Numbered from the stretch's first letter, positions 49,052-64,000 are shown. The stretch is 64,000 bases of DNA from Sumerlaeia bacterium (GCA_040219255.1 JAVJSW010000027.1:28990-92989); one strand, 5' to 3'. Notes: generated from the letters alone by a model not told the origin. A program made the numbers and translations.

Positions 49052-49128
49052 GCGCCCGTAGCTCAGGTGGATAGAGCACAGGATTCCTAATCCTGGGGTC
49101 ACAGGTTCGAGTCCTGTCGGGCGCGCCA
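49052..49128 (+). tRNA. tRNA-Arg (anticodon CCT)
   Basis: Acceptor stem GCGCCCG/CGGGCGC, D-arm, anticodon loop TTCCTAA, GGTTCGAGTCC T-arm, encoded CCA. Confidence 0.97.
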
Positions 49129-49132
49129 TGAG

Positions 49133-50605
49133 TTAGCGCTTCCGCCGCCGGGCTTTTCCCTGGGGCTTCGGCGGCGCGATTGCTGGCTGGGCGGGATGTT
49201 CATCGAAAGGCCCGGCGGTCGGCGCCTCGACCAAGCGAATTCGGATCTCAGCCAACCAAACCGGCACGGCCAGGATCGTGAGCAAAGCCAGATATCGAAT
49301 CAGCAGGGTAATCGGCAAGTGATGGCGTTCGATTTCGACGCTGTCCGCCAAAGTGACAACGGCCGACTGAGTGGCGGCCCCGATCCCGAAGAGAAGAATC
49401 GTCCATCCCAAGGCTGAACAATCGGGGCGCCCGGCGGTGAGGGCGATCAGCAAACCGATACTCGTGCAGGCAATCAAGAGCAGTTCCCCATAGCCGCCAA
49501 ACCTGGGAAAGGCCTTGTGTTCCAGCCATCGCACAAAGCGCAGTTCGCGTCCTTTGTCTTTCGTGTAATTCGGGACGAAATTGTCGATGCTGGACCGATA
49601 GCCCCGAATTGAAAGATCCAGCGACCATTGGGGATGGGTCAGAATGTAACGCTTGAAGCTGCTGAGGCCGTGTTCGTTAAGCCAGTCGATGTACGGGGGA
49701 TGATGAATGATCGTGCGGTTGAAGGACCAAACTGGCTCGGCGGTCCATTTGAGAATGGTCTCGTCCAGTGGCAGCCCGTACTCTTTGTTCCAATGGCTCT
49801 TCGCGTCTGTGTTGGGTAGAATACGCATAAAAATGACATTCGATAAATTCGTCTTCCATCGCCCTGAAGCTTTGTTCATCTGGCTCGATATAAAGAAGAG
49901 TAAGAAAAGCAAGAAGATCGTTCCCGCGAGAGTCCAAAGGGTACAACGGTGGCGTGCCTCATCGCCTTTGCGAGACGCGAATGCCGAGCCGGCAATGGTT
50001 GCCGCCAAGAGAGGAGCGAAATACATCCAATGGTCACGGGTTAAAATGAGGAGCGCAAGCGTCCCGATCAAGCTTGCCGAACTGAGCGGTAACCAGCGCC
50101 AATGGAGGCTTGGTTCGGATATTGCGCGGAATGTGAGCAAGACCAATCCGAGGAGAGTCAACAACAAGGAAAAAGCGACCGATTCGGAACGGGCCACAAT
50201 CGCCCACGCGCTCACCTGTGGAGAAAGGCTGAGAAGTAGAATCCCGATGACGCCCAGCAAACCGAGCAGTCGCCTTCCAAGAACGATGAACGCACAGGCA
50301 GAGAGAATGAGAGTCGCAAAAACATGGATCGTCAGTTGCCATCGAAAGATCGAAACATGTTCCTGTCCCGCCAGTTTGTGAACGAATGGCACAACAGGCG
50401 GGCGGCCTCCCAGCCAGAAATTCTTGCTGAAGAAGGGTTCCTTAGCGAGATTGTAGAAGGCGCCTTGGTCCCCGCTTTCCACTAAGGCATCCACGGTGCC
50501 GAACGTCTTAAATGACAACGCGAAGTAAATCAGGCAAAAGAGGGAGGCAGCGAGTCCGTAAAGATGAATCGGCTTGAATGGATAAGCTTTGAGTGCGTTC
50601 ATCAT
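49133..50605 (-). CDS. Polytopic membrane protein, probable GT-C glycosyltransferase
   Basis: Many TM segments; acidic GDQGAFY loop, RPPVVP, ARSES, ERH motifs; visibly lower GC. Confidence 0.6.
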   Translation of the reverse strand: MMNALKAYPFKPIHLYGLAASLFCLIYFALSFKTFGTVDALVESGDQGAFYNLAKEPFFSKNFWLGGRPPVVPFVHKLAGQEHVSIFRWQLTIHVFATLILSACAFIVLGRRLLGLLGVIGILLLSLSPQVSAWAIVARSESVAFSLLLTLLGLVLLTFRAISEPSLHWRWLPLSSASLIGTLALLILTRDHWMYFAPLLAATIAGSAFASRKGDEARHRCTLWTLAGTIFLLFLLFFISSQMNKASGRWKTNLSNVIFMRILPNTDAKSHWNKEYGLPLDETILKWTAEPVWSFNRTIIHHPPYIDWLNEHGLSSFKRYILTHPQWSLDLSIRGYRSSIDNFVPNYTKDKGRELRFVRWLEHKAFPRFGGYGELLLIACTSIGLLIALTAGRPDCSALGWTILLFGIGAATQSAVVTLADSVEIERHHLPITLLIRYLALLTILAVPVWLAEIRIRLVEAPTAGPFDEHPAQPAIAPPKPQGKARRRKR

Positions 50606-51492
50606 TTCCTCTCCAACTGAAGTTCTCGTTTAGCGAAATAAGCAGCTAGCGCAATGGAGGGAAAGATGGACAAAGCAGGAGTTAAAAAGGCTTTTCCGGC
50701 CAAGGGAGACATGTTCTCAAAGACGCACTGCATTCCAAGCGCCAGAACGAGCAACATTGCCTGCTGTGTCACCGAGCGCTTCGAGATTAGTCCAGCCGAT
50801 ATCACCACAAGAATGATCGCGATGCTTCCAGCGAGATATCGCAGAACCGGCACGCCCGTGTCCCTGAGCTGCATTCGGACACGATCCAGGGACAAAATCG
50901 CGTTTGGATGATTGGTTCTGGCCTCATATCGAATGTGCGCCACTGATGCCGGTGAGGAAGCGTCGAGGCTGATCGGCCGCTTGTCTTGGTCCGCGAAGTT
51001 CTGAAGAATCAAATCTGCATTGCCGTCTTTGTCAAAGACAGTGACGGTTGTTTGTAGTACAGGCGCGGCGTAGTTGTAGAAGTAGAAGTCTCCACTGACT
51101 CCGGTTCTCTTGGGGATTCTAAAATCCATCACCAGGGGCCGTTCCCGGTTTGTAGCCAATCCATATGGATTGTGGTCAAAATTGGATGGATCGGATTGAA
51201 GAAATTTTCCCACCGTCTCAAAGTTGCCCTCGTTCAACTGGTCGATGAACTGATGGTCATAGGGCCGCAGCGCTTGAAAGGCCCCGCAGAGGATAAAGAA
51301 GAACGACAGGGCCGCGGCGATTGCCAATTGATCCCGGCGTGTTGACCGGTCGATGGCACGCTGCAGACGTTCATGAAAAGGGGTCAAAGCCAAGTTTAAA
51401 CCTCGCATGCAATGTCGACTCAGTTTTCGAAGCAGACAATGACCGGGCAACGGAAATCCGGACGCCGCCCCGGGGCCTTTGCCTTGTTTCAC
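50602..51492 (-). CDS. Hypothetical membrane protein with extracytoplasmic domain (true start probably downstream)
   Basis: N-terminal TM, soluble domain, about three C-terminal TMs; overlaps next gene by 4 nt; lower GC. Confidence 0.55.
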   Translation of the reverse strand: MKQGKGPGAASGFPLPGHCLLRKLSRHCMRGLNLALTPFHERLQRAIDRSTRRDQLAIAAALSFFFILCGAFQALRPYDHQFIDQLNEGNFETVGKFLQSDPSNFDHNPYGLATNRERPLVMDFRIPKRTGVSGDFYFYNYAAPVLQTTVTVFDKDGNADLILQNFADQDKRPISLDASSPASVAHIRYEARTNHPNAILSLDRVRMQLRDTGVPVLRYLAGSIAIILVVISAGLISKRSVTQQAMLLVLALGMQCVFENMSPLAGKAFLTPALSIFPSIALAAYFAKRELQLERK

Positions 51493-51611: not shown

Positions 51612-54242
51612 ATGCCTTCCTCCACCCCCGAAACGCTCTCCCTAGCCGCCCAGCTCAAAGCCGAAGTGGACGCCCGCCCGGCGCTCGACGCGGCGGATGA
51701 CGCCCCGGCCACAGCTCTCGTCCGCCCCGAAATCCTGGCTCCCGCCGGCGACGAAGAGATGATGCGGGCGGCCGTTGAAAACGGCGCCGACGCCGTCTAT
51801 TTCGGGCTCCAGGACTTCAACGCACGCATGCGGGCCCAGAACTTCCACCGCCGCGAACTGCCCCGGGTGGTGGCGTGGCTGCACGAACGCGGTGTTCGGG
51901 CCTATGTGACGCTGAACACGTTGATTTTTCCCACCGAACTCGGCGCCGCGCGCGATTGCCTGCTGGCGTGCTCGCGGGCCGGGGTCGATGCGGTGCTGGT
52001 CCAGGACACCGGCGTGGCGATGCTGGCGCGCGATCTGGTGCCGGAGCTGCCGCTGCACGCCTCGACCCAGATGACCGTCACCGGAGCCGAGGGCGTCGCC
52101 GCGCTGGAAGCCATGGGGTTGCGCCTCGACCGCATCGTGGCGGCTCGCGAAATGAGCCGCACGGAATTGCGCCGTATGCGCCAAGCCAACGCCGTCGTCG
52201 AAATCGAAGTCTTCGTCCACGGCGCCATCTGCGTCGCCTACAGCGGCCAGTGCCTCACGAGCGAGGCCCTCGGCGGCCGCAGCGCCAACCGTGGCGAGTG
52301 CGCCCAGGCCTGCCGCCTGCCTTACGACTTGGTCGTCGATGGCGAGGTGAGCGACCTTGGCGACGTGCGTTATCTGCTCTCGCCAAAGGACTTATCCGGC
52401 TACAGCGACATCGCCGATCTGGCCCGCATGGGCATCGTGAGCCTGAAAATCGAGGGGCGCTATAAGTCGCCACAATACGTCGCCGCCACCGTCGCGGCCT
52501 ATCGCAAGGCGGTGGACGAAGCCATGGCGGGAGCCGACCGCCCCGAGCCCGATCAGGCCACGGCCGAGACCCTGGCGATGACTTTCAGCCGAGGCTTCAC
52601 CGGCGGATACCTTCACGCCACAGACCATCAGGCCGTCGTCGAGGGGCGTTTCCCCAAGAAGCGCGGTCTGTACCTGGGGCGGGTCGCCGAGGTGCGCGGC
52701 AACGATGTCATCGTCCACCTGGAAGGTCCTCTGAAGTGCGGCGACGGCGTGGTGTTCGACGCCGGGAAGCCGGACGAGGACGAGGCCGGCGGCTTTGTTT
52801 TCGGTCTCAGGGTGGGGTGGAAGTCGATGAAGAGCGTGGAGATGGAAGACCTTGCGCTGCACAACTCCGTCACCGTCGTCTTCGGTCACGGCCGGGTCGA
52901 TCTGCGAAACGTCAAGCCCGGCGACCGCCTCTGGAAAACCAGCGACCCGAAACTCGATTCCGCCCTGACCGCCAGCTTCGCCGGCGAAGGCCCCCGCTTT
53001 CGCCGCCCGGTCCGGGCATTCGCCGTCGCTCGCGCGGGCCACCCGCTCAGTCTCGCCCTGTGGGACGAAGACGGGTTCCACGTGGAAGTCACCGCCGAGC
53101 AGCCCCTCGAACCCGCGCGCAAGCACCCGGCCACGGAGGCCGTCATCCGCGAGCAAATCGAACGGCTCGGCGGGACCCCGTTCGCCCTGGACCGGCTCGA
53201 CTGCGTCATCGAAGGCGAGCCGATGGTGCCCAAGAGCCTCCTCAACGATTTGCGGCGCGATGCCGCCGAGGCGCTTGCCAAGGTGCGGCGAACACGCGGC
53301 CTGGATCGCTCCGATGACCCAAGCGCGCTCGATCGTCTGCGCGCCGAACTTCTGCCCCAGCGCGAAACCCCTCCGCCCCCCGCCGAGTCGCGCCTTTCGG
53401 TTCTCTGCCGCACCCTCGAACAGGTCGAAGCCGCCGTCGCCACCGGCCTCTGCGACACGATCTACACCGATTTCGAAGACATTCGCCTGCACCAGGAAGC
53501 CCGCCGCCTGATTCCGCCGCGGGCCGACGGCGGCCCCGCCTTCGCCCCCGCCGGGCTGCGCATCGTCAAGCCGGGCGAGAGCGGCTTCGTCCGCGTTCTC
53601 CTGCGCAGCGAACCCGACGCGCTCCTCGTGCGGAACCTTGCCTCCTGGGACATTCTGCGGCGCGAGCGACCGGACCTGGAAATCCGGGGCGATTTTTCCC
53701 TCAATGTCGCCAACGAACTGACCGCCGCGCTCCATCGGCGCCACGGGTTCTCCTGGCTCACGCCCAGTTACGACCTGAATCTCGAGCAGCTAGAAGGTCT
53801 CCTCCGGGCCGCGCCGCCCTCCTGGTTCGAAGTCACCATCCACCAATACATGCCCATGTTCCACATGGAGCACTGCGTTTTCTGCCGCTTTCTCTCCGAT
53901 GGCACCGACTACACCAATTGCGGCCGGCCGTGCGAAAAACACACCCTCGCGCTGCGCGACCGCGTCGGATACGAGCACGCCGTCCTGCCCGACGCCGGAT
54001 GCCGCAACACCGTGTACAACGCCGTCGCCCAAAGCGGCAGCGAATCCCTCGGCCGCCTGCTCACCGCCGGAGTCCGCCGCTTCCGCATCGACCTCCTCAA
54101 CGAAACCGCCGCCCAAACCCGCCAAGCCCTCACCGCCTACCACCCCGCGATATGCGGGAAATCAAGCGGCGAAGGGCTCTGGAAGAGGCTCAACGCCCTG
54201 TCTAAGCTGGGAGTGACGCGGGGGAGTTTGGATCATGGGTGA
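51612..54242 (+). CDS. U32 peptidase-family protein with DUF3656 (RlhA-like 23S rRNA hydroxylase family)
   Basis: PEILAPAG, GADAVYFG, HASTQM, HGAICVAYSGQC, SANRGECAQACR, KIEGR, C-terminal MEHCVFC..CGRPC..GCRNTVYN. Confidence 0.92.
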   Translation: MPSSTPETLSLAAQLKAEVDARPALDAADDAPATALVRPEILAPAGDEEMMRAAVENGADAVYFGLQDFNARMRAQNFHRRELPRVVAWLHERGVRAYVTLNTLIFPTELGAARDCLLACSRAGVDAVLVQDTGVAMLARDLVPELPLHASTQMTVTGAEGVAALEAMGLRLDRIVAAREMSRTELRRMRQANAVVEIEVFVHGAICVAYSGQCLTSEALGGRSANRGECAQACRLPYDLVVDGEVSDLGDVRYLLSPKDLSGYSDIADLARMGIVSLKIEGRYKSPQYVAATVAAYRKAVDEAMAGADRPEPDQATAETLAMTFSRGFTGGYLHATDHQAVVEGRFPKKRGLYLGRVAEVRGNDVIVHLEGPLKCGDGVVFDAGKPDEDEAGGFVFGLRVGWKSMKSVEMEDLALHNSVTVVFGHGRVDLRNVKPGDRLWKTSDPKLDSALTASFAGEGPRFRRPVRAFAVARAGHPLSLALWDEDGFHVEVTAEQPLEPARKHPATEAVIREQIERLGGTPFALDRLDCVIEGEPMVPKSLLNDLRRDAAEALAKVRRTRGLDRSDDPSALDRLRAELLPQRETPPPPAESRLSVLCRTLEQVEAAVATGLCDTIYTDFEDIRLHQEARRLIPPRADGGPAFAPAGLRIVKPGESGFVRVLLRSEPDALLVRNLASWDILRRERPDLEIRGDFSLNVANELTAALHRRHGFSWLTPSYDLNLEQLEGLLRAAPPSWFEVTIHQYMPMFHMEHCVFCRFLSDGTDYTNCGRPCEKHTLALRDRVGYEHAVLPDAGCRNTVYNAVAQSGSESLGRLLTAGVRRFRIDLLNETAAQTRQALTAYHPAICGKSSGEGLWKRLNALSKLGVTRGSLDHG

Positions 54243-54506
54243 GTTTTTGGTGGGCCACGGGGCGAGGCTCTCGCAGCATTCTGGCTATTCTGCCAGTAAG
54301 AAGCGAGATCGCCACGATGAAAGCTCTCCTGGAACTCACGTACACCCCGCGCTCCGAGTGGAGCGACAAAGCCCGCGATGCCTTTTCAAAGGATTTGAGG
54401 GAGCGTTATCCTCGGGTCAGTGACCTGACCGACAAGAAGAACGACGAGAAGCGATTCCAGTTGCGCGTCAACGGCGACGCCAAGCCCGGGGCGGTTCCCT
54501 ATGCGG
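54132..54506 (+). repeat. Copy 1 of the U32-3'-end/mcrB-5'-end junction repeat
   Basis: Aligns over about 370 bp with 60716-61091 and over 97 bp (54162-54258) with 59160-59256. Confidence 0.92.
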
Positions 54507-54739
54507 CTGAGTGGACGATCCTGGGAGCGGAGAGCGCGGCGGCTTTCGGCGAATGGGCGGGGGCGCTGGAGGGGAACTGCTTCGTCGATGGGATGGAATT
54601 GTCGCTGGCCGACGGGACGACGAAGGCGCCGTTGGAATTGCTGATTCCAGGGTACGATGCGTGGCTGATGCGCCCGCAAATCTTGCTGACGGAGCGGGGC
54701 GTGGACCAGGGTGTCTCGCACGGACAAACTTTGGCTTGA
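54317..54739 (+). pseudogene. Truncated mcrB 5' fragment fused in frame to unrelated sequence
   Basis: First ~64 codons (MKALLELTYTPR...GAVPYAA) nearly identical to McrB at 60902, then abrupt divergence. Confidence 0.8.
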
Positions 54740-54799
54740 TTGGAGGGGCCGAAGGCGGTATGCGGTAAGGCTATTGAATTGCAAGGTTGCTCGAAAAAT

Positions 54800-57700
54800 A
54801 TGGCACGTGTATTGGCCCTCTTCGTAATTTGCGCTCTCGGCGCGGTGTTGCCTGCCCCTATGTGGGCCTTATGGCCGGGACCGGGAGGGCCTTCCACTGA
54901 TGTGTACGCGGGTGGGACGAGGCCGCTGTTGCCGCTGGAGCCGAAGAGCCTCTTTCTCGATCCGTTGGCGTTCGGGGTGGGCGAGTTCCGGGCCCAGAAC
55001 GACGGTTTGGTCCATGTCCGGCTTGCCCCTGGCGGGGCCATCGAGGTCCAGCGCTGGCCACGCCAGGATGTATTGAACGACGCCCCGTCGGTTTATCGCA
55101 TGGAGCCCGCGGGTGAAGGGTCCTCACTCGTTCCTTTCCAACCGTTTTACCTGGACCATACGGGTTCTATGTATTTCGGCTACGATTATAACATCCAACG
55201 CGGATTGTCGGACCAAACGGCGGTCGGCATCCAGAAGGTGGGCGGCGATGGCTTGGAACTGCTCAGGGATTGGGAACTGCTTCCCTGGCAACTGGGCCGG
55301 TTTCAGTCCATCAATCAAATGCTGGTGACGACCCTTCCCGGCGTTGTCGCCGTGGGCCAGGAGAACAGACAAAACTTCCTTTGGTACGCCTCCAGCTTGG
55401 GCTCGATCGGTCGTCTGGCCGATCTGGGGAACTCATCGCGAGACTATTTGTATTTTTCGATGATCCAAACGAGAGAGGAGCAAATCGCTTTTGTGGAGTC
55501 GGTGGATTTGGAGGAGTACACAATCCAAGTCTGGAACCTGCGCACACTCTCCCAGGAGTGGCAGCGCCCTGCACCGGGGACGCTCAACGGGCCGCAAGTG
55601 GGGCGGGGGATCGATCTGGCGGCGGTGGGCGACCGGCTCGTCGTTGGCTTCGAGGACGGCGTTGAGGTGCTGACTCTGGGAGGGACACCGGTTTGGGAGG
55701 CGGACTTGGCATTGGGCGACATCGCCACTTCGTTATTCAAACCGCACATGGCCACCGACGGACAGACGTTGCTTGTGCACCACGGTTCCTCCCAATTTTT
55801 CCAGGATGAGCCAGCGCCCGGCGCATTGGCCCCGGACGCGCCGCTGGTCGCGTACGATCTGGAGACGGGGACGGAATTGTGGCGCAGGACTTTCGACGCG
55901 GTCTCTGTTGGGCCCTGGCTGGGTCAGAATCCCGGCGCCGCGCCGCCCTATCTGCGCGGTGCGGTGACGGTCAACCCGATCATCGTGGGGGATAAAATCG
56001 CGCTGGCGGGGCTGAGGGCGCCGGAAGCGGATCTGGACGGCGAGCCGCTGCGGACGCTTACGATCCTGGATTTGGCCACGGGCGCGACGGAGGCCCAGAT
56101 CACCAGCGAGGACGGCATCGTTTTGAAGGAGATCACCGGTCTGATGGCTTCGCAAGCGACCATTTTTCTGACCGGTCTGATCCAGCAGGGAGAGTTCGCC
56201 GGAGCCGCCGACCGGCGCGCCGCGGCTCAAGGTTTCGGTGCGGTGGCGGCGGAGTTGGTCACCTCGCTGGCGGCCCGCTCGGCCATCGAGGGGTGCGGCG
56301 TCACGGTGGGGACGCCGGTGAGGTTCGAAGTCGAGGTGGCGAGCACGGGGAAGGGCCCGGCGCAAGCCCCCCGTCTTGAGGTGGTCACCTCACTGAGTGC
56401 CGATATCGTCATCGGCTCGGACCCCGAATGCCGATTCATCGCCTCCGCGGTGGGGACGTGTGTGCTGGGTGGGCTCGAAGCCGCCGCGGAAGACGGCGAG
56501 CCCAACAGCCGAACCGTGGAAGTGACCGTGATTCCGCAGGTTCCCGGGTCGCTGACGGTGAAGATGCTGACAGCCGATGACGAACGCGGGGGGGCGAACT
56601 CCGTGGCGGCGACCTTCGACCTGGAAGTCTTCCCCGCCGCCGCGAACCTGGAACTGACAATCGACGCCATCGAGGTCACTCAAGGCGTGCAGGACTTGAA
56701 CAACAGTGTGCCGCTCGTAGCGCGGAAACCGGCTTTGGTGAGGGTGTACCTGGGGACGAACGGCGCGCGGGTCACGGGGGTCGTGGCGACGCTGGAGGGC
56801 CGGCGCGGGGGGCTAAGCCTGGGGTTCGCCGAGCAACTGAACGGGTGTCTGACGCTTGGCACCGGTGGCTCGGATCGCGCCGACCTGACGACGACGGCGA
56901 ATTTCCTGCTGCCGCGCACTTGGCTGCTAGAAGATTTCGAATTGGTGGCCCGAGTCGATCCGGAAGACTTGGTCATCGAAGCCAACGAGGGCAACAATTC
57001 CCGCACCGCCGCCGTCAATCTGCACCCCATGCCGCCGGTCTGCACGGTGTCTTATCCTCTGGTGGTGCTCGACAGCAACGGAGAGCCGGTGACAACGGGC
57101 CTGATCGACCCCATCGCCTCGGGTCAGACGCGGCCGGTACAGTCCGTCCGGGCTTTGTCCCTGCTGCCCATCCATCGCTTCGACAACGTCAACATCTTCG
57201 AAGCTTTGAAGCCGAGATTTGGTGAAGCGTGGGACTTAGACCTGGACCCGTTGAACGCGGACACGGGGGAAGGCGGCAAGATTTTGGATCGGCTCGAGCG
57301 AATCCGCGCCCTCTCCCGCGATCCCAACGATTGCGATGCGGGCTCGATCTACGCCGGGTATTTCTCCCAAAACGCACGGTCGGACATGGGTGGCCTGGCT
57401 CGCACCCCGGGTCATGTTCAGATCAATGTGTCGAACAACGATTACAACTCCAACTTCCCCTTCGATACTCCTTTCGGAGGTCTGGTCCGAGCCCACGAGA
57501 CGGCGCACAACTATGGCCGTGTTCATGTCGATTGCGGGATCGGCGGAGTCGGCGCGGGCTCCATTCTGGACATGAATTACCCCCATCCGCCCTGCCAAGT
57601 GGCGGCAACCGGGACCGGTACCGAGTGGGGCCTAGACTTCGCCGATCCGACGCTGATTTCGATTATCCAGCCGAAGGACGCCGCGGACATGTTGAGTTAC

Positions 57701-58963
57701 AACAGCAACCGATGGATTTCGGGATATCAATGGCGCCGGCTGATGAATGAGATCGATGCCGGGAATCGTGGAAAGTCGAGCCTTGGAACCACGATCGAAG
57801 AGGCTGGGGGCACGGTTTGGCCTCCAGAGGTCATTCCGCCCCTGAGGGATACGGCCACCGGTGAGGCGCAGGTTGCAGAGGAGGCGGTGAAAATCCTCGG
57901 CGTCTCGCAGGTGGCGCTGGCCTTTGGCGGGGCGGAATTGGCGGAAGACGGTTCGCTGGATTTGGATAGCGTGGTTTTGCGAAGCGGGGAGTTGCTGGCG
58001 GGCGAGGTTCCCGCGCCGGACCCCATGAGGCGGCTCTACGCCGAACACCGGCGGGCCGCGCTTGGCGTCGCGGCAAAGGGACTGGCGACGGACCTGCGCG
58101 TGGAGGTGCTCGCCGCGAACGGCCAGGTGCTCGCCAGTGAGCCCGTCGTCATGGCGTTCGACCTGAGCGAGGCGGCTCCGGCGGCATCGTTCACGCTGCT
58201 GGTTCCAGCCGGGCCCGGTGCCTCGGCGGTGCGAATCGTGGACGCGGACAATGCCGAACTGGCGCGCTTAGAGGCCTCGGCGAACGCGCCCGTCATCGGG
58301 CTGGTCCAGGTCAGCGCCAACGATGCGGACCGCACCATCACGGCCTCATGGTCAGGGGCTGACGCCGATGGCGATGCGATCTCGTACACTCTCCTCTTCA
58401 GCGATGACGGAGGCGCCACGTGGCAGGTCATCACGGAAACGGAAGCGACCGAGGCGAGTTTCGACGCCACCAGTTTGCCCGGGACCGCTGCGGCCCGCGT
58501 GCGAGTTCTGGTGAGCGACGGCTTCTTGACGGCGTATGCCGACTCGGTGGCGTTCACGGTGGCTCCCCGAGAACCGCAGGCGCGCATCCTCTCGCCGGGG
58601 GAAGGAGCGGCTTTCCCATTCGGCGCACTCATCCGTATGCAGGCAGAAGCCTTCGACCCCGAGGAGGGGTCGCTGCCGGACGAAGCCCTGGTCTGGGAGG
58701 TGGACGGTGCGGCAGCGGGCTCGGGCGAAGTGCTCGACTTCCGTGGGCTGGCGGCGGGCACGCGGACGGTGACCCTTCGGGCCACGGACAGCGACGGCAA
58801 AGTCAGCGAGGCGGCGACCTCCTTTGTGGTGGGCCAACCCTTGCCCACCCGCGGGGCCGCCATTGCGGCGCTGCTGGGGCAGGCCTCCGCGCAAGCGCCC
58901 CTGGCGGACCGGGACGGCGATGGCCGGGTGGACGCCGCGGACCTACTGGCCCGGCCGAAGTGA
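54800..58963 (+). CDS. Large secreted mosaic protein: PQQ-like propeller, DUF11/CARDB-like Ig domains, zincin metallopeptidase, Ig-like domains, dockerin-like tail
   Basis: Signal peptide; LVAYDLETGTELWR; IEVTQGVQ, VDPEDLVIEANEGNN; AHETAHNYGRVH; SDDGGATW; DRDGDGRVDAADL. Confidence 0.85.
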   Translation: MARVLALFVICALGAVLPAPMWALWPGPGGPSTDVYAGGTRPLLPLEPKSLFLDPLAFGVGEFRAQNDGLVHVRLAPGGAIEVQRWPRQDVLNDAPSVYRMEPAGEGSSLVPFQPFYLDHTGSMYFGYDYNIQRGLSDQTAVGIQKVGGDGLELLRDWELLPWQLGRFQSINQMLVTTLPGVVAVGQENRQNFLWYASSLGSIGRLADLGNSSRDYLYFSMIQTREEQIAFVESVDLEEYTIQVWNLRTLSQEWQRPAPGTLNGPQVGRGIDLAAVGDRLVVGFEDGVEVLTLGGTPVWEADLALGDIATSLFKPHMATDGQTLLVHHGSSQFFQDEPAPGALAPDAPLVAYDLETGTELWRRTFDAVSVGPWLGQNPGAAPPYLRGAVTVNPIIVGDKIALAGLRAPEADLDGEPLRTLTILDLATGATEAQITSEDGIVLKEITGLMASQATIFLTGLIQQGEFAGAADRRAAAQGFGAVAAELVTSLAARSAIEGCGVTVGTPVRFEVEVASTGKGPAQAPRLEVVTSLSADIVIGSDPECRFIASAVGTCVLGGLEAAAEDGEPNSRTVEVTVIPQVPGSLTVKMLTADDERGGANSVAATFDLEVFPAAANLELTIDAIEVTQGVQDLNNSVPLVARKPALVRVYLGTNGARVTGVVATLEGRRGGLSLGFAEQLNGCLTLGTGGSDRADLTTTANFLLPRTWLLEDFELVARVDPEDLVIEANEGNNSRTAAVNLHPMPPVCTVSYPLVVLDSNGEPVTTGLIDPIASGQTRPVQSVRALSLLPIHRFDNVNIFEALKPRFGEAWDLDLDPLNADTGEGGKILDRLERIRALSRDPNDCDAGSIYAGYFSQNARSDMGGLARTPGHVQINVSNNDYNSNFPFDTPFGGLVRAHETAHNYGRVHVDCGIGGVGAGSILDMNYPHPPCQVAATGTGTEWGLDFADPTLISIIQPKDAADMLSYNSNRWISGYQWRRLMNEIDAGNRGKSSLGTTIEEAGGTVWPPEVIPPLRDTATGEAQVAEEAVKILGVSQVALAFGGAELAEDGSLDLDSVVLRSGELLAGEVPAPDPMRRLYAEHRRAALGVAAKGLATDLRVEVLAANGQVLASEPVVMAFDLSEAAPAASFTLLVPAGPGASAVRIVDADNAELARLEASANAPVIGLVQVSANDADRTITASWSGADADGDAISYTLLFSDDGGATWQVITETEATEASFDATSLPGTAAARVRVLVSDGFLTAYADSVAFTVAPREPQARILSPGEGAAFPFGALIRMQAEAFDPEEGSLPDEALVWEVDGAAAGSGEVLDFRGLAAGTRTVTLRATDSDGKVSEAATSFVVGQPLPTRGAAIAALLGQASAQAPLADRDGDGRVDAADLLARPK

Positions 58964-59159
58964 GCAGGCTCAGCCGGCCCCTCAAAAAACGCCGGGGAAA
59001 CTCGCCCGCAAGCCACGTCCCCACAGTAGCTCCCTTGGCCGACTTGCCGCCCTCCCCGGTGAGGCCCGTATCCAAGCGATAAACGACGGATAATCCGAGA
59101 CTTGTGCTCGGTAAGAAGCCCCCGCCCACAACCCTCTGACCTCCCGCAGCCCCGGCCAG

Positions 59160-59256
59160 TCAAGCGGCGAAGGGCTCTGGAAGAGCCTCAACGCCCTGTC
59201 GAAGCTGGGGGTTACGCGGGGGAGTTTGGATCATGGGTGAGTTTTTGGTGGGCCAC
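59160..59256 (+). repeat. Copy 2 of the U32 3'-end repeat
   Basis: 97 bp with 4 mismatches to 54162-54258, three of them synonymous in the U32 frame. Confidence 0.92.
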
Positions 59257-59263
59257 TACCCCC

Positions 59264-60571
59264 TCAATAAAACACCCACTGCTGAGTCGTCGGGGGCGGC
59301 AGGCCGTGGGGGCCGGGGCCGGTGGGGCGTTTGGTGTGGCAAATGCGGCAGTCCGAGAGGGTTTTCGCGGTGCCCTGCAGTCGCAGCGCCTGGTAGTTGT
59401 CGCGGGGCTGGACGGTAGGGTATTCGGCGTGGGGGCTGCCATGGCAGGCTGTGCAGTAGAGCCCGCCGTGGCCGATGCTGTTGCGGTAGAGCTTGCCGGG
59501 GTTCTCATCATAGCCCGCGTGGCAGCTTCCGCACTTCGGTTCGTCGATCCATGGACGCCGGCCTTCTTCGATGCTGCGGGCGACTTGGCGAATCGAGCCG
59601 TGGCAGTCCTCGCAGCTTTGGCCCGCTTTGTACATGGCCCCGCGCAGGCACTGGGTCTGTTGGCCGGGATGGCACGCATAGCAGTTCATGGTGGGGAATT
59701 CCTCGCCGTGCTTCTCGTGGATCGCTTGTGAAAGGCTCTTTACCCCCGGCCGGCCTGTGGTCCCCAGCGCGTTTGAGGAGTGGCATTCGGCGCAGAGCAC
59801 CGGTTGCTGGTCGAGAAGCGAGCGGCCATCCACCTCGTCGTGGGCCTCCAGCACGCGTTCCACGGCTTCAATTTCACCCTTTGTCACTTCGCGGAAAGTG
59901 ATCAGATCGCGCAGGCTCTTGTAACCGGCTCCCGGCTTGCTTGTCTGCGGCCAGATCGAGACGTCCTTCGCTCTGGATTTGTCGTCGTCTTCGCCAGAGT
60001 GGCAGGTGTTACAGTGGATTTCCGTCGAAGTCGGCACGACCACGTGGGCTTGATCCAGAACCGGTCCTCCGGTCGCCTGGCGCAGAGTCACTTCGGCGAG
60101 TTGGTAGGGCTGCTCCACGGTGGGATTGGCGTCGGTAAAGGGGGTGATCGGAACACCGGTCACTTCCCACGCCGAGCCATTCCACTCCAACGTCCCCGCC
60201 AGTCCATGGCCCGTCAGGCCGATGTCTTCGGGTAAATCCACACCGAACAGCTTGTCCTCATGCTCCCAAAAGTTGACCTTGTTTGCGCTCGTTGTGTTCT
60301 CGGGGAAACGGTACTCGAGCACCATGTCTGAGGAAACGAGCTGGGGCGGATTCCCGCGCTTCACAATCTGCGCCCACAGGTTGTTGTACGGCGGCAGAAT
60401 CACCCACTCCGAGTACTCGCCGTTCATGCAGTGCATCCCCAGGTCGTTCCACCCGATCACAACGTAGTCTCCCAAGTCGGTGCGGGATGGGGGTTCCTGG
60501 ATCTGGGCCGCCACTGTGCCGACCAGACAAAGGGAGATAGACGTGAGAGTGAGTTTGCGGGCAGAGAACAT
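59264..60571 (-). CDS. Secreted multiheme c-type cytochrome (7 CxxCH)
   Basis: Signal peptide; WNDLGMHC; CNTCH, CAECH, CYACH, CEDCH, CGSCH, CTACH, CRICH. Confidence 0.92.
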   Translation of the reverse strand: MFSARKLTLTSISLCLVGTVAAQIQEPPSRTDLGDYVVIGWNDLGMHCMNGEYSEWVILPPYNNLWAQIVKRGNPPQLVSSDMVLEYRFPENTTSANKVNFWEHEDKLFGVDLPEDIGLTGHGLAGTLEWNGSAWEVTGVPITPFTDANPTVEQPYQLAEVTLRQATGGPVLDQAHVVVPTSTEIHCNTCHSGEDDDKSRAKDVSIWPQTSKPGAGYKSLRDLITFREVTKGEIEAVERVLEAHDEVDGRSLLDQQPVLCAECHSSNALGTTGRPGVKSLSQAIHEKHGEEFPTMNCYACHPGQQTQCLRGAMYKAGQSCEDCHGSIRQVARSIEEGRRPWIDEPKCGSCHAGYDENPGKLYRNSIGHGGLYCTACHGSPHAEYPTVQPRDNYQALRLQGTAKTLSDCRICHTKRPTGPGPHGLPPPTTQQWVFY

Positions 60572-60601
60572 GGGATAAACCGGAGAGCAGAAGTCTAATT
60601 T

Positions 60602-60629
60602 ATACTAATTATTTCGACCGTAAAGTCAA
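60602..60629 (-). promoter_or_regulatory. Putative sigma70 promoter of the cytochrome gene
   Basis: Minus strand TTGACT, 16 nt spacer, TAGTAT in an AT-rich patch about 30 nt upstream of the ATG. Confidence 0.5.
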
Positions 60630-60715
60630 GACGAATTCCGAGCCGTCCCAAGATGAAGCAGTTGAACTCACCGGTAAGAACAGCTTACGGGTGTCACGGT
60701 CTGCACCAGACACCA

Positions 60716-61091
60716 ACCGCCTGCCACCCCGCGGTGTGCGGACACACGAGCTGCAAAGGCGTCTGGAAAAAGCTCAACGACCCGTCGAAGCTGTGGGTGA
60801 CGCGGGGGAGTTTGGATCATGGGTGAGTTTTTGGTGGGCCACTGGGGGTGGGCTCTTGCAGAGTCCTGGCTATTCTCCCAGTAAAAAGCGAGATCGCCAC
60901 GATGAAAGCGCTCCTGGAACTCACGTACACCCCGCGCTCCGAATGGGGCGAAAAGGCCCGCGATGCCTTTTCAACGGACTTGAGGGAGCGTTATCCTCGG
61001 GTCAGTGACCTGACCGACAAGAAGAACGACGAGAAGCGATTCCAGTTGCGCGTCAACGGCGACGCCAAACCCGGGGCGGTTCCCTATGCCG
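60716..61091 (+). repeat. Copy 3 of the junction repeat (decayed U32 tail plus 5' end of intact mcrB)
   Basis: Translates TACHPAVCGHTSCKGVWKKLNDPSKLWVTRGSLDHG* versus the functional tail TAYHPAICGKSSGEGLWKRLNALSKLGVTRGSLDHG*. Confidence 0.9.
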
Positions 61092-62386
61092 CCCTCATTC
61101 CGCCCGACCAGGATTTGTCCGGCGGCTATGGGGGGATGAGTTTCGTGATGTTCCCGGCGGATGAGGACAACGGCTTGCCGAGTTTACTCGCCATGGTCGT
61201 TGGCACCAATGGATTGGCCCCCGACGAGATGGTCCTGGGCCGCCCGGGTCATGGACGGAAGTGCGCCGCTATCGCGTCGTATCTGAACCAAAAGCTGCCC
61301 GGATCTACCTGGGCCAAACGCGATCCGGTGCGCATCGACTTGGACATGCCACGTTCGCTCAAGCAGCAACTGGATGCCTGGTCTGGGTGCTGTCAGAAGT
61401 ACGGGCGCGTGCTCTACGCAATGTTTGTCCCTCCCACTCAGCGGACGGTGGAATCGGACCAACTGGTCCTGCAAGCTGTTACCGCCTTTGTGGATTTGTT
61501 CTTTGACGAGCGAGAAATGGCCCCGAAGAAGGCTTATGAGCAGGATATGGCTGCTCTGAGGCGCAACTGGATGGCTCAGGTTCTGCCGACAGCCACGGAC
61601 GACCAAGTCGCTGATGTGCTCGGGCGGCGGCGGTTTGCCATTCTGGAGGGACCACCTGGCACCGGAAAAACCGAGATGGCGCGTCGTCTGCTTACAGAAG
61701 TATATGGCGGCCGTGGAACCGTCATTCAGTTCCATCCTGGAACAACCTACGAGACCTTTGTCGGCGGCCTGGCGCCTCGCGACGGAGGAGCTCTGGGCTT
61801 CACCTTTCATCCGACGCCTGGGCATCTGATGAAGGCCGCTCAGGCTGCTGCGGATTCTCCGGAAAAGCCCTATCTACTGGTCATTGACGAGATCAATCGG
61901 GCTGATCTCTCAAAGGTTCTGGGCGAGGCGATCTATCTGTTCGAGCCCGATCAGCCGGATCGCGAGGTCCAACTGCCTTTTGCATTCGACGGATTTGGAG
62001 ATCGCCTCCGGCTGCCGCCGAACCTGCATGTTTTGGGGACCATGAACACGGCCGACCGCAGCATCGCCATTTTGGATGTGGCGGTCCGACGTCGCTTCGC
62101 CTTCATCCCGCTCTGGCCTCAGCTTGAGGTCGTGGAGAAGTTGGCTGGAGAGCAGATGCGCGACAGCTTTCACGAGTTGCTGACCTTGTTTATCGAACAC
62201 GCCAGCGAGGACGCTCTTCCCTTAACCCCAGGGCACGCCTATTTCCTGGCCAAAGACGAGGAGGCTGATAGTCGCCTCGGAACCAGTGTCCGGCCTCTTT
62301 TGGAAGAGTATCTGGCTCAAGGGTACGTGGCCGGATTCGCCGATGAAATCCGCGCTTACATCGCCCGCTTGGGGCAGGGCGCCTGA
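60902..62386 (+). CDS. mcrB: McrB-like AAA+ GTPase subunit of a type IV restriction system
   Basis: GPPGTGKT, IQFHP..TYETFV, IDEINRADLSKVLGE, GTMNTADRSIA...RRRF. Confidence 0.92.
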   Translation: MKALLELTYTPRSEWGEKARDAFSTDLRERYPRVSDLTDKKNDEKRFQLRVNGDAKPGAVPYAALIPPDQDLSGGYGGMSFVMFPADEDNGLPSLLAMVVGTNGLAPDEMVLGRPGHGRKCAAIASYLNQKLPGSTWAKRDPVRIDLDMPRSLKQQLDAWSGCCQKYGRVLYAMFVPPTQRTVESDQLVLQAVTAFVDLFFDEREMAPKKAYEQDMAALRRNWMAQVLPTATDDQVADVLGRRRFAILEGPPGTGKTEMARRLLTEVYGGRGTVIQFHPGTTYETFVGGLAPRDGGALGFTFHPTPGHLMKAAQAAADSPEKPYLLVIDEINRADLSKVLGEAIYLFEPDQPDREVQLPFAFDGFGDRLRLPPNLHVLGTMNTADRSIAILDVAVRRRFAFIPLWPQLEVVEKLAGEQMRDSFHELLTLFIEHASEDALPLTPGHAYFLAKDEEADSRLGTSVRPLLEEYLAQGYVAGFADEIRAYIARLGQGA

Positions 62387-62389
62387 TCC

Positions 62390-63853
62390 ATGGCGAAGCG
62401 CGCTCGCTTTCCAGTCTATCGGCGCTTACCGGCGGCACGCGTCGTTGCGGGCTCGCGAGCTATTCCCGACACCTCCGATTGCTTTGTTTCTGTCCTGGAC
62501 TGGCTGGGTGGGGAAGGGGCCGATGCAGCCTCCTCAGCCGAGCGGCGAGCCGAGCACCTTCTCGGCGCAAACGAAGGTTTGCTGCGTGACATGGCAGTTC
62601 GGGCTGATCCGATGCGACGGGGAGGCGTGCCGGGCATCCGATTTCAGACCGCCGCCAGGGTCGGTGCCGTGCCGCTCCTCTCGCCGGTCACGGGGCGTCC
62701 TGATTTCGGTTTGGTCATTGAGCCTCGCTTCGCCTGGGCTTCTGCAGGGGATATGCTCGCTGGCATGGGATTTCGTGTGGTTCCCGAGTTCCTGCCCTTG
62801 CCAGAACTCCCGCAGTCAGAGCGCCGCGTCCCGCCCTGGGTCCTTTCGAGTGTGATTCTCAAACGGCTCGAAGACTTGCTGAATTCGCTCCAGCGGCGGT
62901 CCGCGACGAGTCAGGCGATCCTGTCGGCTCCTAGGGGCCAAGTCGATTGGACAGACTATGCGACCCGACGTTTTGCCCGTGGACGAGCTTTGGATGTGCC
63001 ATGCCGCTTTCCCGATTTGCGCGATGATGAAGAGCTCCGCGCCGCCATTCATTGGGTCGTCCGCCGCCACCGGGAATCTCTGCTGAGCCAGATGAACGCC
63101 GGTCTCGTGGTCCATCGACTGCTGGCGCTTTGCGATCTTCTGCTATCGAAGCTTTCGGGCACGCCGCCTCGCATGCCTATCGAGCGCGATCGTTCTGCCT
63201 GGAATCGGCGCCCCCTGCTGCCCAAGGTCTTCCGCGAAGGCCTCCAGGCCATCGACTGGACGGTGGATGAACGTGGCTTGGCGGGGTTGTCGGATTTGTC
63301 TGGTTTATCTTGGAGGCTCGACATGGCGGCCTTCTTCGAGGCTTGGGTCGAGACGATTGCGGAAAGCGTAGCGCGCCAGGTGGGAGCCACCCTCCGTAGC
63401 GGGCGACGCCAGCAAACTCGCGTTCCGATGGACTGGCTGCCCCCATCTTCGGGCAGCCAACGCTCGCTCCTGCCTGATGTCGTTCTGGAGCGGGAAGACG
63501 TTGTGGTGGTGCTGGATGCCAAATACAAGCGGCACGCGGAAGACATCGAGCGCCTCGGTTGGAGCAACGCCGACGAAGCACTCCGAGAGCAGCATCGCAA
63601 CGATGTCTTGCAGGCGTTGGCCTACTCCACGTTGTTCAACGCGCCGCGCGTCGTCTCTTGTCTTGTCTATCCGATAGCCCCAGAGAAATGGGCGGAACTT
63701 CGGCGCCGGGGGCGGACACTGCACCGTGCCCAAGTCCGCACCGGCGAGCGCCATGTGGAAATGGCCCTGCTGTCCGTACCGCTCTCGGGCGACCCCCTCG
63801 GGGCTGGTGAGGACTTGAAGCAATTGGTCAGGCGCGGACTCAGCGAGATATGA
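62390..63853 (+). CDS. mcrC: McrC-like PD-(D/E)xK nuclease subunit
   Basis: Directly follows mcrB; PRGQVDW, FFEAWV, LLPDVV, VLDAKYK, DVLQALAY, LVYP. Confidence 0.88.
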   Translation: MAKRARFPVYRRLPAARVVAGSRAIPDTSDCFVSVLDWLGGEGADAASSAERRAEHLLGANEGLLRDMAVRADPMRRGGVPGIRFQTAARVGAVPLLSPVTGRPDFGLVIEPRFAWASAGDMLAGMGFRVVPEFLPLPELPQSERRVPPWVLSSVILKRLEDLLNSLQRRSATSQAILSAPRGQVDWTDYATRRFARGRALDVPCRFPDLRDDEELRAAIHWVVRRHRESLLSQMNAGLVVHRLLALCDLLLSKLSGTPPRMPIERDRSAWNRRPLLPKVFREGLQAIDWTVDERGLAGLSDLSGLSWRLDMAAFFEAWVETIAESVARQVGATLRSGRRQQTRVPMDWLPPSSGSQRSLLPDVVLEREDVVVVLDAKYKRHAEDIERLGWSNADEALREQHRNDVLQALAYSTLFNAPRVVSCLVYPIAPEKWAELRRRGRTLHRAQVRTGERHVEMALLSVPLSGDPLGAGEDLKQLVRRGLSEI

Positions 63854-64000
63854 TCGTCGCCTTTAGCCCAACTTCGACAGTTGTGAGGCGATGTTTCTTG
63901 CAATTGCTGGAGTTACGTTTTTTGGACCGTTGAAGTCGCCACTACATTCTGGAAGCGTTTTGGTCGGTTGGGGAGGCGAAGCTTGAGGGCGTGGAGCAGG

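Follow-up and report, generated by a model that had tools for sequence, protein, structure and literature searches.

Three direct copies of a U32-family gene end in a Sumerlaeia bacterium, possibly scars left by successive insertions anchored on homology

The 3' end of a U32-family gene is present in three direct copies, interspersed with accessory genes, in the 64,000-nt stretch of Sumerlaeia bacterium DNA analysed here (the window; positions are counted from its first letter). The leading, though tentative, reading of this locus is that it carries the scars of successive homology-anchored insertions, which displaced older junction copies downstream. For the three-copy array itself, successive insertions at one spot are most likely, rather than a new gene-capture machine, and the locus is a variant of known repeat-flanked insertions, not a new mechanism. 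The initial annotation had proposed successive integration of small circles; the succession is consistent with the direct repeats over the stop codon, the accessory cargo and the stronger decay of the older copies, while the circles are considered below with the read data. Three points are new, namely a chimeric ORF, the end of the contig within a repeat, and a gradient of decay away from the U32 gene.

The U32-family gene (51612-54242, plus strand) encodes a protein of 876 amino acids with Peptidase_U32 (PF01136, E 1.3e-86) and DUF3656 (PF12392, E 3.2e-25) domains; its best NCBIfam match is TrhP, under the family cut-off. The gene is intact, its 3' end is the part that is repeated, and orthologues with 57-70% identity occur in 11 relatives' loci. 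The previously given gene order, namely U32, zincin, U32 tail, cytochrome, and U32 tail with mcrB and mcrC, was found to be correct. The restriction genes are both intact: mcrB (60902-62386, plus strand) encodes the AAA_5 GTPase subunit of a type IV restriction system (AAA_5, E 5.7e-17; NCBIfam McrB, E 3.9e-35, under the family cut-off), and mcrC (62390-63853, plus strand) matches Pfam McrBC (PF10117) above the cut-off, with E 8.3e-8.

An exact-match scan of the window located the 43-bp core of the repeats at 54216-54258, 59214-59256 and 60800-60842, all on the plus strand, with no matches in 100 shuffles, in agreement with the earlier claim of three direct gene ends sharing an identical core across the stop codon. 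The first core comprises the last eight U32 codons (TRGSLDHG), the stop codon and 16 nt beyond. The genome search suggested in the initial annotation yielded only these three copies in the whole 5.35-Mb MAG, all at the U32-mcrB locus, and a relaxed-mismatch scan of the MAG with either core half found no recurrence outside it. By local alignment, copy 1 (54132-54507, plus strand) and copy 3 (60716-61092, plus strand) have 377 nt in common, with a start-to-start spacing of 6585/6584 nt. Copy 1 consists of the live U32 tail (54132-54215), the core, an intergenic segment (54259-54316) and mcrB', codons 1-64 of mcrB (54317-54507), while copy 3 consists of a decayed U32 tail (60716-60799), the core, the intergenic segment and the start of the intact mcrB. 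Copy 2 (59160-59257, plus strand) comprises a U32 tail fragment (59160-59213), the core and a T in common with copy 3; its local alignment to copy 1 covers 97-98 nt (95.9% over 97 nt), its likeness to the others stops at the right edge of the identity block, and its right end lies 6 nt from the stop codon of the cytochrome gene. To the left of 59160 no significant extension was found at the DNA level, 82/300 and 218/500 shuffles equalling the observed score; tblastn chains the copy 2 tail back to U32 residue 810, through two stop codons. Neither tail 2 nor tail 3 is preceded by U32-like DNA. Outside the core, likeness extends over 54 nt (copy 2) and 84 nt (copy 3) in the left arms, and over 249 nt in the right arms of copies 1 and 3.

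The decay of the copies rises with distance from the U32 gene. The tails of copies 1 and 2 differ at 4/54 positions (three synonymous changes, one missense) and those of copies 1 and 3 at 19/84 (seven synonymous, 12 missense), whereas the core shows 0/43 differences, which bears out the earlier description of copy 2 as mostly synonymous, copy 3 as rich in missense changes and the core as invariant. Missense changes in the copy 3 tail affect positions conserved in relatives, e.g. KLGV to KLWV. Between copies 1 and 3 the intergenic segment has 9/58 differences plus one 1-nt indel, and the mcrB' stub differs from the start of the intact gene at 9/191 positions (six synonymous, three missense). 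The stub has thus diverged less than the tail (9/191 versus 19/84, Fisher P 1.9e-5), and the probability of three or fewer missense changes among nine is 0.01. The few differences and their synonymous bias argue that the stub gained its changes while part of a functional gene of another lineage, and not by decay at its present position.

This observation bears on an origin in place, in which the U32-mcrB junction was duplicated locally, foreign DNA came between the copies and unequal decay followed, short-tract gene conversion keeping the core and the mcrB start alike. Such an origin requires no donor, and would be consistent with the equal extent of copies 1 and 3 (377 nt) and with their patchy identity, in runs of 46, 89, 32 and 24 nt (the 89-nt run lying inside mcrB), as conversion between direct repeats could give. 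However, a dead mcrB stub should decay like a dead tail, which is contradicted by the comparison given above; in addition, the boundaries of copy 2 differ, and the conversion tracts would need common edges in three copies. An in-place origin is therefore considered improbable.

If insertions were instead anchored by homology, the locus would be a small mosaic islet within variable DNA just behind the U32 gene, formed by at least two recombinational insertions anchored on homology of the U32 3' end. Each incoming piece would be DNA of a related lineage with its own U32 end plus the DNA behind that end, and could enter by Campbell-type integration, in which a circularised fragment undergoes one crossover, or through a homologous left end combined with an illegitimate right end. 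Each insertion would leave the U32 gene intact and shift the previous junction copy downstream, where it would decay; copy 1 would be the live end, copy 2 a recently displaced end, and copy 3 the oldest displaced end, remaining in front of mcrBC. The repeats, their pattern of divergence, the chimeric junction and the accessory character of the cargo are directly shown, whereas the sequence of insertions and the part played by homologous recombination we infer. Homology-anchored insertion is favoured because likeness runs beyond the core in every copy, unlike the att block of contig C77 described below, because the copies decay progressively away from the U32 gene, because the mcrB' stub diverged as a working gene and not in place, because the joint of mcrB' with a Hint fragment, described below, reveals illegitimate joining in the islet, because the 93-kb contig has no mobility domain and the cargo is patchy, and because documented insertions of restriction systems have long target duplications without mobility genes (PMC2853133). 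Against it count the perfect 43-46-nt block amid flanks about 20% diverged, which is not predicted by homologous insertion alone, the ending of copy 2 at the block edge, and rare core codons unlike those of relatives; the model also places one earlier event in an unseen donor.

The first interval contains an annotated chimeric ORF (54317-54739, plus strand; 140 amino acids), which comprises McrB' residues 1-64, an in-frame fragment of a Hint-toxin gene and 29 unrelated codons. Its N-terminal part is the same as McrB at 61/64 residues. The Hint homology (54501-54651) has 41/50 residues in common with a Hint ORF on contig C67. The best-known feature of the latter ORF is a match to 8w20_A, the chain of an intein C-terminal splicing domain (E 2.3e-5); its neighbour matches Rhs_assc_core. 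Since the joint between mcrB' and the Hint fragment lies at a 4-7-nt microhomology, ATGC(G/C)GC, illegitimate joining has acted in the islet; mcrB' in copy 1 may be the stump of a second mcrBC, fused to the toxin-gene fragment by such an event. The right edge of copy 1 was also considered as the edge of a portable junction and was ruled out, being the edge of this illegitimate fusion. The earlier view that each interval holds exactly one intact gene is valid for the zincin and cytochrome genes, but interval 1 has the 140-aa ORF in addition.

The main rival explanation, judged rather unlikely, takes the repeats as att scars of a tyrosine or serine integrase acting at the 43-46-bp block, the enzyme being now lost, encoded beyond the contig end or supplied in trans. 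Elements stacked in tandem would have supplied the last U32 codons, E1 extending from mcrB' to the zincin gene, E2 carrying the cytochrome gene, and possibly E3 beginning with mcrBC. An identity block over the 3' end of a conserved gene, between diverged flanks, would be expected of such scars, and the homology of copy 2 does stop at the block edge. The perfect block has a probability of 8e-5 if all sites are free to vary, and of about 0.003 for 26 near-neutral sites after coding constraint is considered, so that its invariance is only moderately improbable once this constraint is allowed for. The codons of the block also agree with att scars, as they are rare in this genome (AGT 0.04, TTG 0.09, CAT 0.17) and unlike those of relatives: the encoded motif is conserved there, but with other codons and unrelated DNA downstream, and the serine codon is AGC in 11/12 relatives' loci matching the motif. 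The live tail contains 7/36 rare codons versus 62/840 in the body of the U32 gene (P 0.015, post hoc); codon usage was tried as a marker of origin and set aside, its signal being too weak to decide which of the tails is native.

The arms of the repeats speak against att scars. The two internal left arms are homologous to the U32 tail, and the right arm of copy 1 matches that of copy 3, whereas the arms of a classical attP differ, as at a tRNA-Pro site on contig C77 of the same MAG, where a sharp 51-nt block has unrelated flanks and recombinase genes inside. No dyad symmetry was seen in the core by eye, and the units, of 1.5 and 5 kb, have no mobility gene. No integrase, resolvase or other mobility domain was found among the 39 window ORFs scanned against Pfam, as the initial annotation had stated for a recombinase, or across the 93-kb contig C27; the 19 PF00589 and two PF00239 matches of the MAG, which the att-scar explanation could invoke, all lie on other contigs. 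The 92%-complete MAG has no further core. A codon-degenerate core pattern had no matches in metagenome_contigs, genome_contigs or viral_contigs, and a 27-nt sub-core had none in viral_contigs. A search for a tRNA-Arg att duplication at the upstream low-GC islet found none.

Contig C27 (92989 nt) stops at the last base of the window, 147 nt past mcrC, within a multi-copy, IS-like repeat that begins at 63860 (63860-64000, no strand assigned); 134-141 nt of it occur at 100% identity on other contig ends, and its interior is absent from the MAG. On C17 the distance between the repeat and one contig end is at most 4 nt; judged by coordinates, the repeat probably also lies at ends of C28, C40 and C7. 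Because the contig ends inside this repeat, the absence of a recombinase applies to the assembled DNA only, and on the att-scar explanation the DNA past the contig end could hold a recombinase and a fourth copy.

The public runs cover the locus at about 3x only, as k=31 contigs. The copy 1 junction is spanned by one X1 contig (54044-54459), and an X3 unitig (59227-59312), spanning core 2 to the end of the cytochrome gene, is the only cover within 59071-59321 among X1, X3 and X6. These three runs leave 54553-54803, 55306-55556, 58820-59070 and 60828-61300 without cover, gaps to which no weight is given here, and tail 2, tail 3 and the mcrB start are uncovered in them. Run X2 covers only 58615-60948, contiguously and with sharp ends bearing 6-7 unmatched letters each; it may not be independent and was not counted as such. 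One further X1 contig departs at 60654 into 233 unlike letters, whose 30-nt consensus is absent from the MAG. The thin cover, the MAG source, the uncovered tails, the departing contig and the doubtful independence of X2 are all compatible with an assembly chimera of strain haplotypes differing in the DNA behind the U32 gene. Such a chimera is nevertheless very improbable: overlaps of up to 141 nt between contig ends suggest a final k of about 141, far above the 43-46-nt exact repeats; the junctions at tails 2 and 3, with no U32-like DNA on their left, cannot result from a switch between U32 haplotypes at a common k-mer; and the copy 1 and core-to-cytochrome junctions are seen in X1 and X3, respectively.

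Excision junctions and circles were not seen in these k=31 contigs, and the MAG has no second core site, so the small circles of the initial annotation gain no support. The direct repeats would allow RecA-type loss of either or both units, although no such product was seen. It is quite improbable that the core at the U32 stop codon still recombines, gaining and shedding units of one gene each (the secreted zincin, the multihaem cytochrome and perhaps mcrBC) as circles, with the help of a recombinase whose gene lies elsewhere or of RecA working on the conserved block. If the site were live, it would be a recombinase-less accretion site on a housekeeping gene, akin to dif modules or rhs arrays but with unrelated cargo; if the units move, bacteria would have a means of collecting single accessory genes beside a defence locus without an element-borne recombinase, and the example would be from a barely sampled lineage.

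The U32 C-terminus was found at 11 loci in metagenome contigs, with 70% identity at best, and the cytochrome-based search of genome_contigs gave no close relative. For all six proteins no other protein was found within 90% identity, the zincin cluster adding only a second gene call on the same contig. The U32 loci of seven relatives have zero neighbouring genes in common with this locus, and none of 15 loci that encode a homologue of the cytochrome, McrB or zincin has an adjoining U32 tail. Neither an empty site nor a second locus was found in the MAG or the collections searched, where no close relative was found; the want of a relative in which an empty site could be seen counts against homology-anchored insertion. 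A literature search returned no paper linking peptidase U32 with integration sites or genomic islands, or yegQ with an integrase attB.

Furuta, Abe and Kobayashi 2010 (PMC2853133), citing an earlier H. pylori report as reference 37, describe restriction systems, type IV included, inserted with long target duplications, i.e. direct duplications of 46-423 bp, some over the 3' end of a gene, without mobility genes. By the criteria given there, the direct duplication exceeds 30 bp and the insert is shorter than 20 kb and free of mobility genes; the mechanism is called unknown. The present locus, with 377-nt repeats spaced by 6585/6584 nt and no mobility genes, agrees with that description in repeat, size and gene content. 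However, the restriction genes of such insertions lie inside and the two copies are near-identical, whereas here mcrBC is found on the right-hand side of copy 3, with a 64-codon stub inside the repeat pair, and there are three copies, 4-23% diverged.

Integrase islands at the 3' ends of tRNA or protein genes resemble the locus in having direct repeats that restore the 3' end, accessory cargo and tandem internal copies, but here no integrase lies between the repeats, the units are single genes, and homology continues for 54-84 nt in the left arms and 249 nt in the right arms, unlike the unrelated attP arms exemplified by C77. In rhs/cdiA orphan arrays, partial copies of the conserved 3' region of a main gene lie behind that gene, each leading different DNA; the older copies are displaced and decaying, and the cargo consists of toxin tips with immunity genes. 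The formal architecture is alike, but the anchor of those arrays is a toxin gene, and here it is a housekeeping U32 gene with zincin, cytochrome and mcrBC cargo, although a Hint-toxin fragment occurs in the islet. Integrons are characterised by IntI, attC imperfect hairpins and promoterless cassettes of the same orientation. The rejection of a classical integron in the initial annotation stands, given the absence of an attC-like fold and of an integrase and the mixed orientations: the six folds of the three units on both strands gave z from -0.61 to +0.56, none attC-like, no PF00589 match to an IntI-type recombinase was found in the 39 window ORFs or on C27, and the cytochrome gene lies on the opposite strand with a weak promoter-like site. 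Xer-dependent dif modules (PMC6449649, PMC13141974) are units of one or a few genes between repeated 28-bp sites. Like these modules and integron cassettes, the present units are small, separated by a repeated site and devoid of a recombinase; they differ in that each repeat is homologous to a gene end over 97-377 nt and no dif-like dyad was seen by eye. Inspected by eye against the dif consensus, the core shows direct GAGTTT(TT)GG repeats and no dyad. The locus may serve to illustrate the graded scars that remain when insertion recurs at the end of one gene, and the fusion of a restriction-gene stub to a toxin-gene fragment at a hotspot of this kind, which could be used in annotating islands in MAGs.

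The first cargo gene (54800-58963, plus strand) encodes a secreted zincin-type protein of 1387 amino acids, whose translation has a signal peptide, a HETAH motif and a dockerin-like C-terminal end. Its homologues cover only about residues 480-1387, with 27-41% identity by segment, and a paralogue with 32% identity is encoded on contig C65 of the same genome. The second (59264-60571, minus strand) encodes a secreted multihaem cytochrome c of 435 amino acids with seven CxxCH motifs (Cytochrome_C7, E 1.1e-12). A promoter of its own, as earlier supposed for this gene, would correspond to one consensus match upstream of the gene at 60602-60629 on the minus strand (TTGACT-16-TAGTAT, 9/12), inside an intergenic spacer of 47% GC, for which shuffles give 0.8 expected. 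The earlier notion of a cassette-accretion site for surface proteins agrees with the accessory nature of the cargo, but rests on two genes. With this MAG counted, the cytochrome gene occurs in 3/25 genomes of the order and, across the class, McrB in 7/73 and the zincin C-terminal part in 23/73 genomes; the cargo genes are accessory and have a patchy distribution.

The U32 gene (51612-54242, plus strand) is followed by genes for a secreted zincin carrying the HETAH motif (54800-58963, plus strand) and a secreted cytochrome containing seven CxxCH motifs (59264-60571, minus strand), and then by mcrB (60902-62386) and mcrC (62390-63853), both on the plus strand, in the order and with the identities proposed in the initial annotation. 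The 43-bp core, which covers the U32 stop codon, was likewise recovered as three exact direct copies, at 54216, 59214 and 60800, all on the plus strand, with no match in 100 shuffles. The suggested search of the genome (5.35 Mb, 83 contigs, 92% complete) returned these three copies only, all in the U32 locus, and a relaxed mismatch setting brought up no further site in the assembly for either half of the core. In local alignment, repeat copies 1 (54132-54507, plus strand) and 3 (60716-61092, plus strand) have 377 nt in common, while copy 2 (59160-59256, plus strand) shares 97 nt with copy 1 and one extra T with copy 3.

The copies have diverged unevenly. Left of the core, the U32 tail of copy 2 differs from that of copy 1 at 4 of 54 positions (3 synonymous, 1 missense) and that of copy 3 at 19 of 84 (7 synonymous, 12 missense), with no difference in the 43 bases of the core in any copy, as had been described. 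Some missense changes in tail 3 hit sites conserved in relatives, e.g. KLGV to KLWV. To the right, copies 1 and 3 differ at 9 of 58 intergenic positions, with a 1-nt indel, and at 9 of 191 positions in mcrB codons 1-64 (6 synonymous, 3 missense). This mcrB stub has diverged less than the tail (Fisher P 1.9e-5), and its changes are skewed to synonymous ones (P 0.01 for at most 3 missense of 9).

Nucleotides 1-27 of the core are the final eight U32 codons (TRGSLDHG) and the stop codon; the other 16 are non-coding. SKLGVT(R/K)GS(L/M)DH forms the U32 C-terminal end in 10 of 11 relatives' loci, with a variant in the 11th. A regular expression for the motif matched 12 of 14 relatives' loci; codons there differ from those of the core, serine being AGC in 11 of the 12, and the DNA past the stop is unrelated to the core's in all 12. 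Action of a site-specific integrase at the core, a possible but rather unlikely origin, is suggested by the block of identity, by the homology of copy 2, which stops at the block edge, and by the rare codons within it (relative usage in this genome AGT 0.04, TTG 0.09, CAT 0.17). With flanks 19.7% diverged, 43 identical bases have a probability of 8e-5 if all sites are free, or about 0.003 with about 26 near-neutral sites. The longest exact run around the core between copies 1 and 3 is 46 nt; the same copies share an exact run of 89 nt inside mcrB, and therefore uneven conservation is not peculiar to the core.

An internal control is provided by contig C77 (29744-35921), where exact 51-nt direct repeats of the 3' half of tRNA-Pro(GGG) surround a 6.1-kb interval with serine and tyrosine recombinase genes. 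The flanks of the 51-nt block are unrelated, and this is an ordinary integrated element. Unlike it, the U32 array has no recombinase, its units measure 1.5 and 5 kb, and homology reaches into the repeat arms, every copy sharing the left one and copies 1 and 3 the right one as well. No attC-like fold was found in the array, which is therefore not an integron; the earlier rejection of that class holds. Further local direct-repeat families of 300-600 nt and 85-95% identity (C80:2801-9631, C19:2612-7729 and C64:2918-3553) could be paralogous modules or else encode repeat proteins.

The mcrB-like piece of copy 1 does not end as a portable junction would; it continues into a stretch (54501-54651) that is 86% identical to part of the 2.5-kb contig C67. 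The two are joined in frame in a chimeric 140-aa ORF within the first interval, and its parents overlap at ATGC(G/C)GC, the fusion point; thus, a microhomology-mediated illegitimate event truncated a second mcrB copy here. C67 (2573 nt) is a fragment of a polymorphic-toxin locus, paralogous to the piece fused to mcrB in the window, and holds, besides a small ORF, one with a Hint domain and one with an Rhs-associated core, both of which also have a C-terminal module. The Hint ORF hits 8w20_A, a chain of an intein C-terminal splicing domain (E 2.3e-5), and, below the cut-off, Pfam PT-HINT (E 0.007); the Rhs-associated core is TIGR03696 (E 1.5e-10).

The graded series of gene-end scars, with single accessory genes between them and mcrBC beside them, is real. 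The initial observation is upheld, and its interpretation as cassette accretion is supported in part. Arrays of displaced modules downstream of rhs and cdiA genes have a comparable layout. Because of the contrasts with C77, the decay gradient, the signature of selection in the mcrB stub and the illegitimate junction, we tentatively favour homology-anchored insertion, in which incoming DNA from related lineages would enter at the U32 end, each insertion shifting earlier junction copies downstream. As a variant of the known insertions flanked by repeats, the array resembles in outline the 'insertion with long target duplication' catalogued for restriction systems (PMC2853133). No evidence of present mobility was found. 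In-place duplication with gene conversion is improbable, and this origin and an assembly chimera are both less likely than homology-anchored insertion or an integrase.

That a chimera produced the locus order is very improbable. Tails 2 and 3 are preceded by DNA that does not resemble U32, so those joints cannot have arisen by switching between U32 haplotypes, and contig-end overlaps of up to 141 nt suggest that the final k greatly exceeded every exact repeat at this locus. The last base of the window is the last of its contig, and a repeat starting at about 63860, 7 nt past the mcrC stop, and running to 64000 also lies at or near the ends of contigs C28, C17, C40 and C7 (134-141 nt, 100% identity). 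Its interior is absent from the assembly; this repeat is probably an IS or something comparable, and the array adjoins unassembled multi-copy DNA. Public sequencing runs were available as k=31 contigs only, at about 3x depth. A contig of run X1 spans copy 1 (54044-54459), and X3 unitigs lead from tail 1 to the core, from the core to the intergenic DNA of copy 1 and from the core to the cytochrome end; X1, X3 and X6 cover no tail 2, tail 3 or mcrB start and at this depth are uninformative there. Run X2 belongs to another study and agrees with the window throughout 58615-60948, the 44-nt core being a node of higher depth; it covers nothing beyond, ends on either side in a few unmatched letters and was not counted as independent. 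One X1 contig departs from the window at 60654, 83 nt upstream of the cytochrome start, with 233 unlike letters whose printed 30-nt consensus is absent from the genome; this may be a second context of the cytochrome gene in the community.

Comparison covered 25 species genomes of the order and 73 of the class. U32 orthologues in these genomes, at 57-70% identity, share no neighbouring genes with the locus described here. The cargo genes are patchily distributed: counting this genome, the cytochrome occurs in 3 of the 25, McrB in 7 of the 73 (best identity 44%) and the zincin C-terminal part in 23 of the 73. No U32 tail was found beside cytochrome, McrB or zincin homologues in relatives. The proposed search for the core beyond this genome gave neither it nor a close relative in the metagenome, genome and viral collections scanned (pattern and protein scans), and among 15 billion sequences no other protein lies within 90% identity of the six locus proteins; the only other entry in the zincin cluster is another gene call on the same contig.

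Homologues of the zincin, including its own paralogue on contig C65, align with no more than about residues 480-1387. For the 480 residues at the N-terminus, no relative turned up among the 73 genomes of the class; GC along the gene swings from 0.575 to 0.72. Upstream of U32, tRNA-Arg(CCT) (49052-49128) is directly followed by a two-gene islet of 54% GC on the minus strand (tract 49052-51492); it lacks an integrase, and the tRNA end is not repeated. U32 therefore has accessory DNA on either side. One islet ORF is weakly similar to the glycan hexose transferase WsfD (E 6.8e-7, below the cut-off); the second is without a family match. At the window start, an ORF at 286-1260 weakly matches phage major capsid protein E (PF03864, E 1.6e-7).
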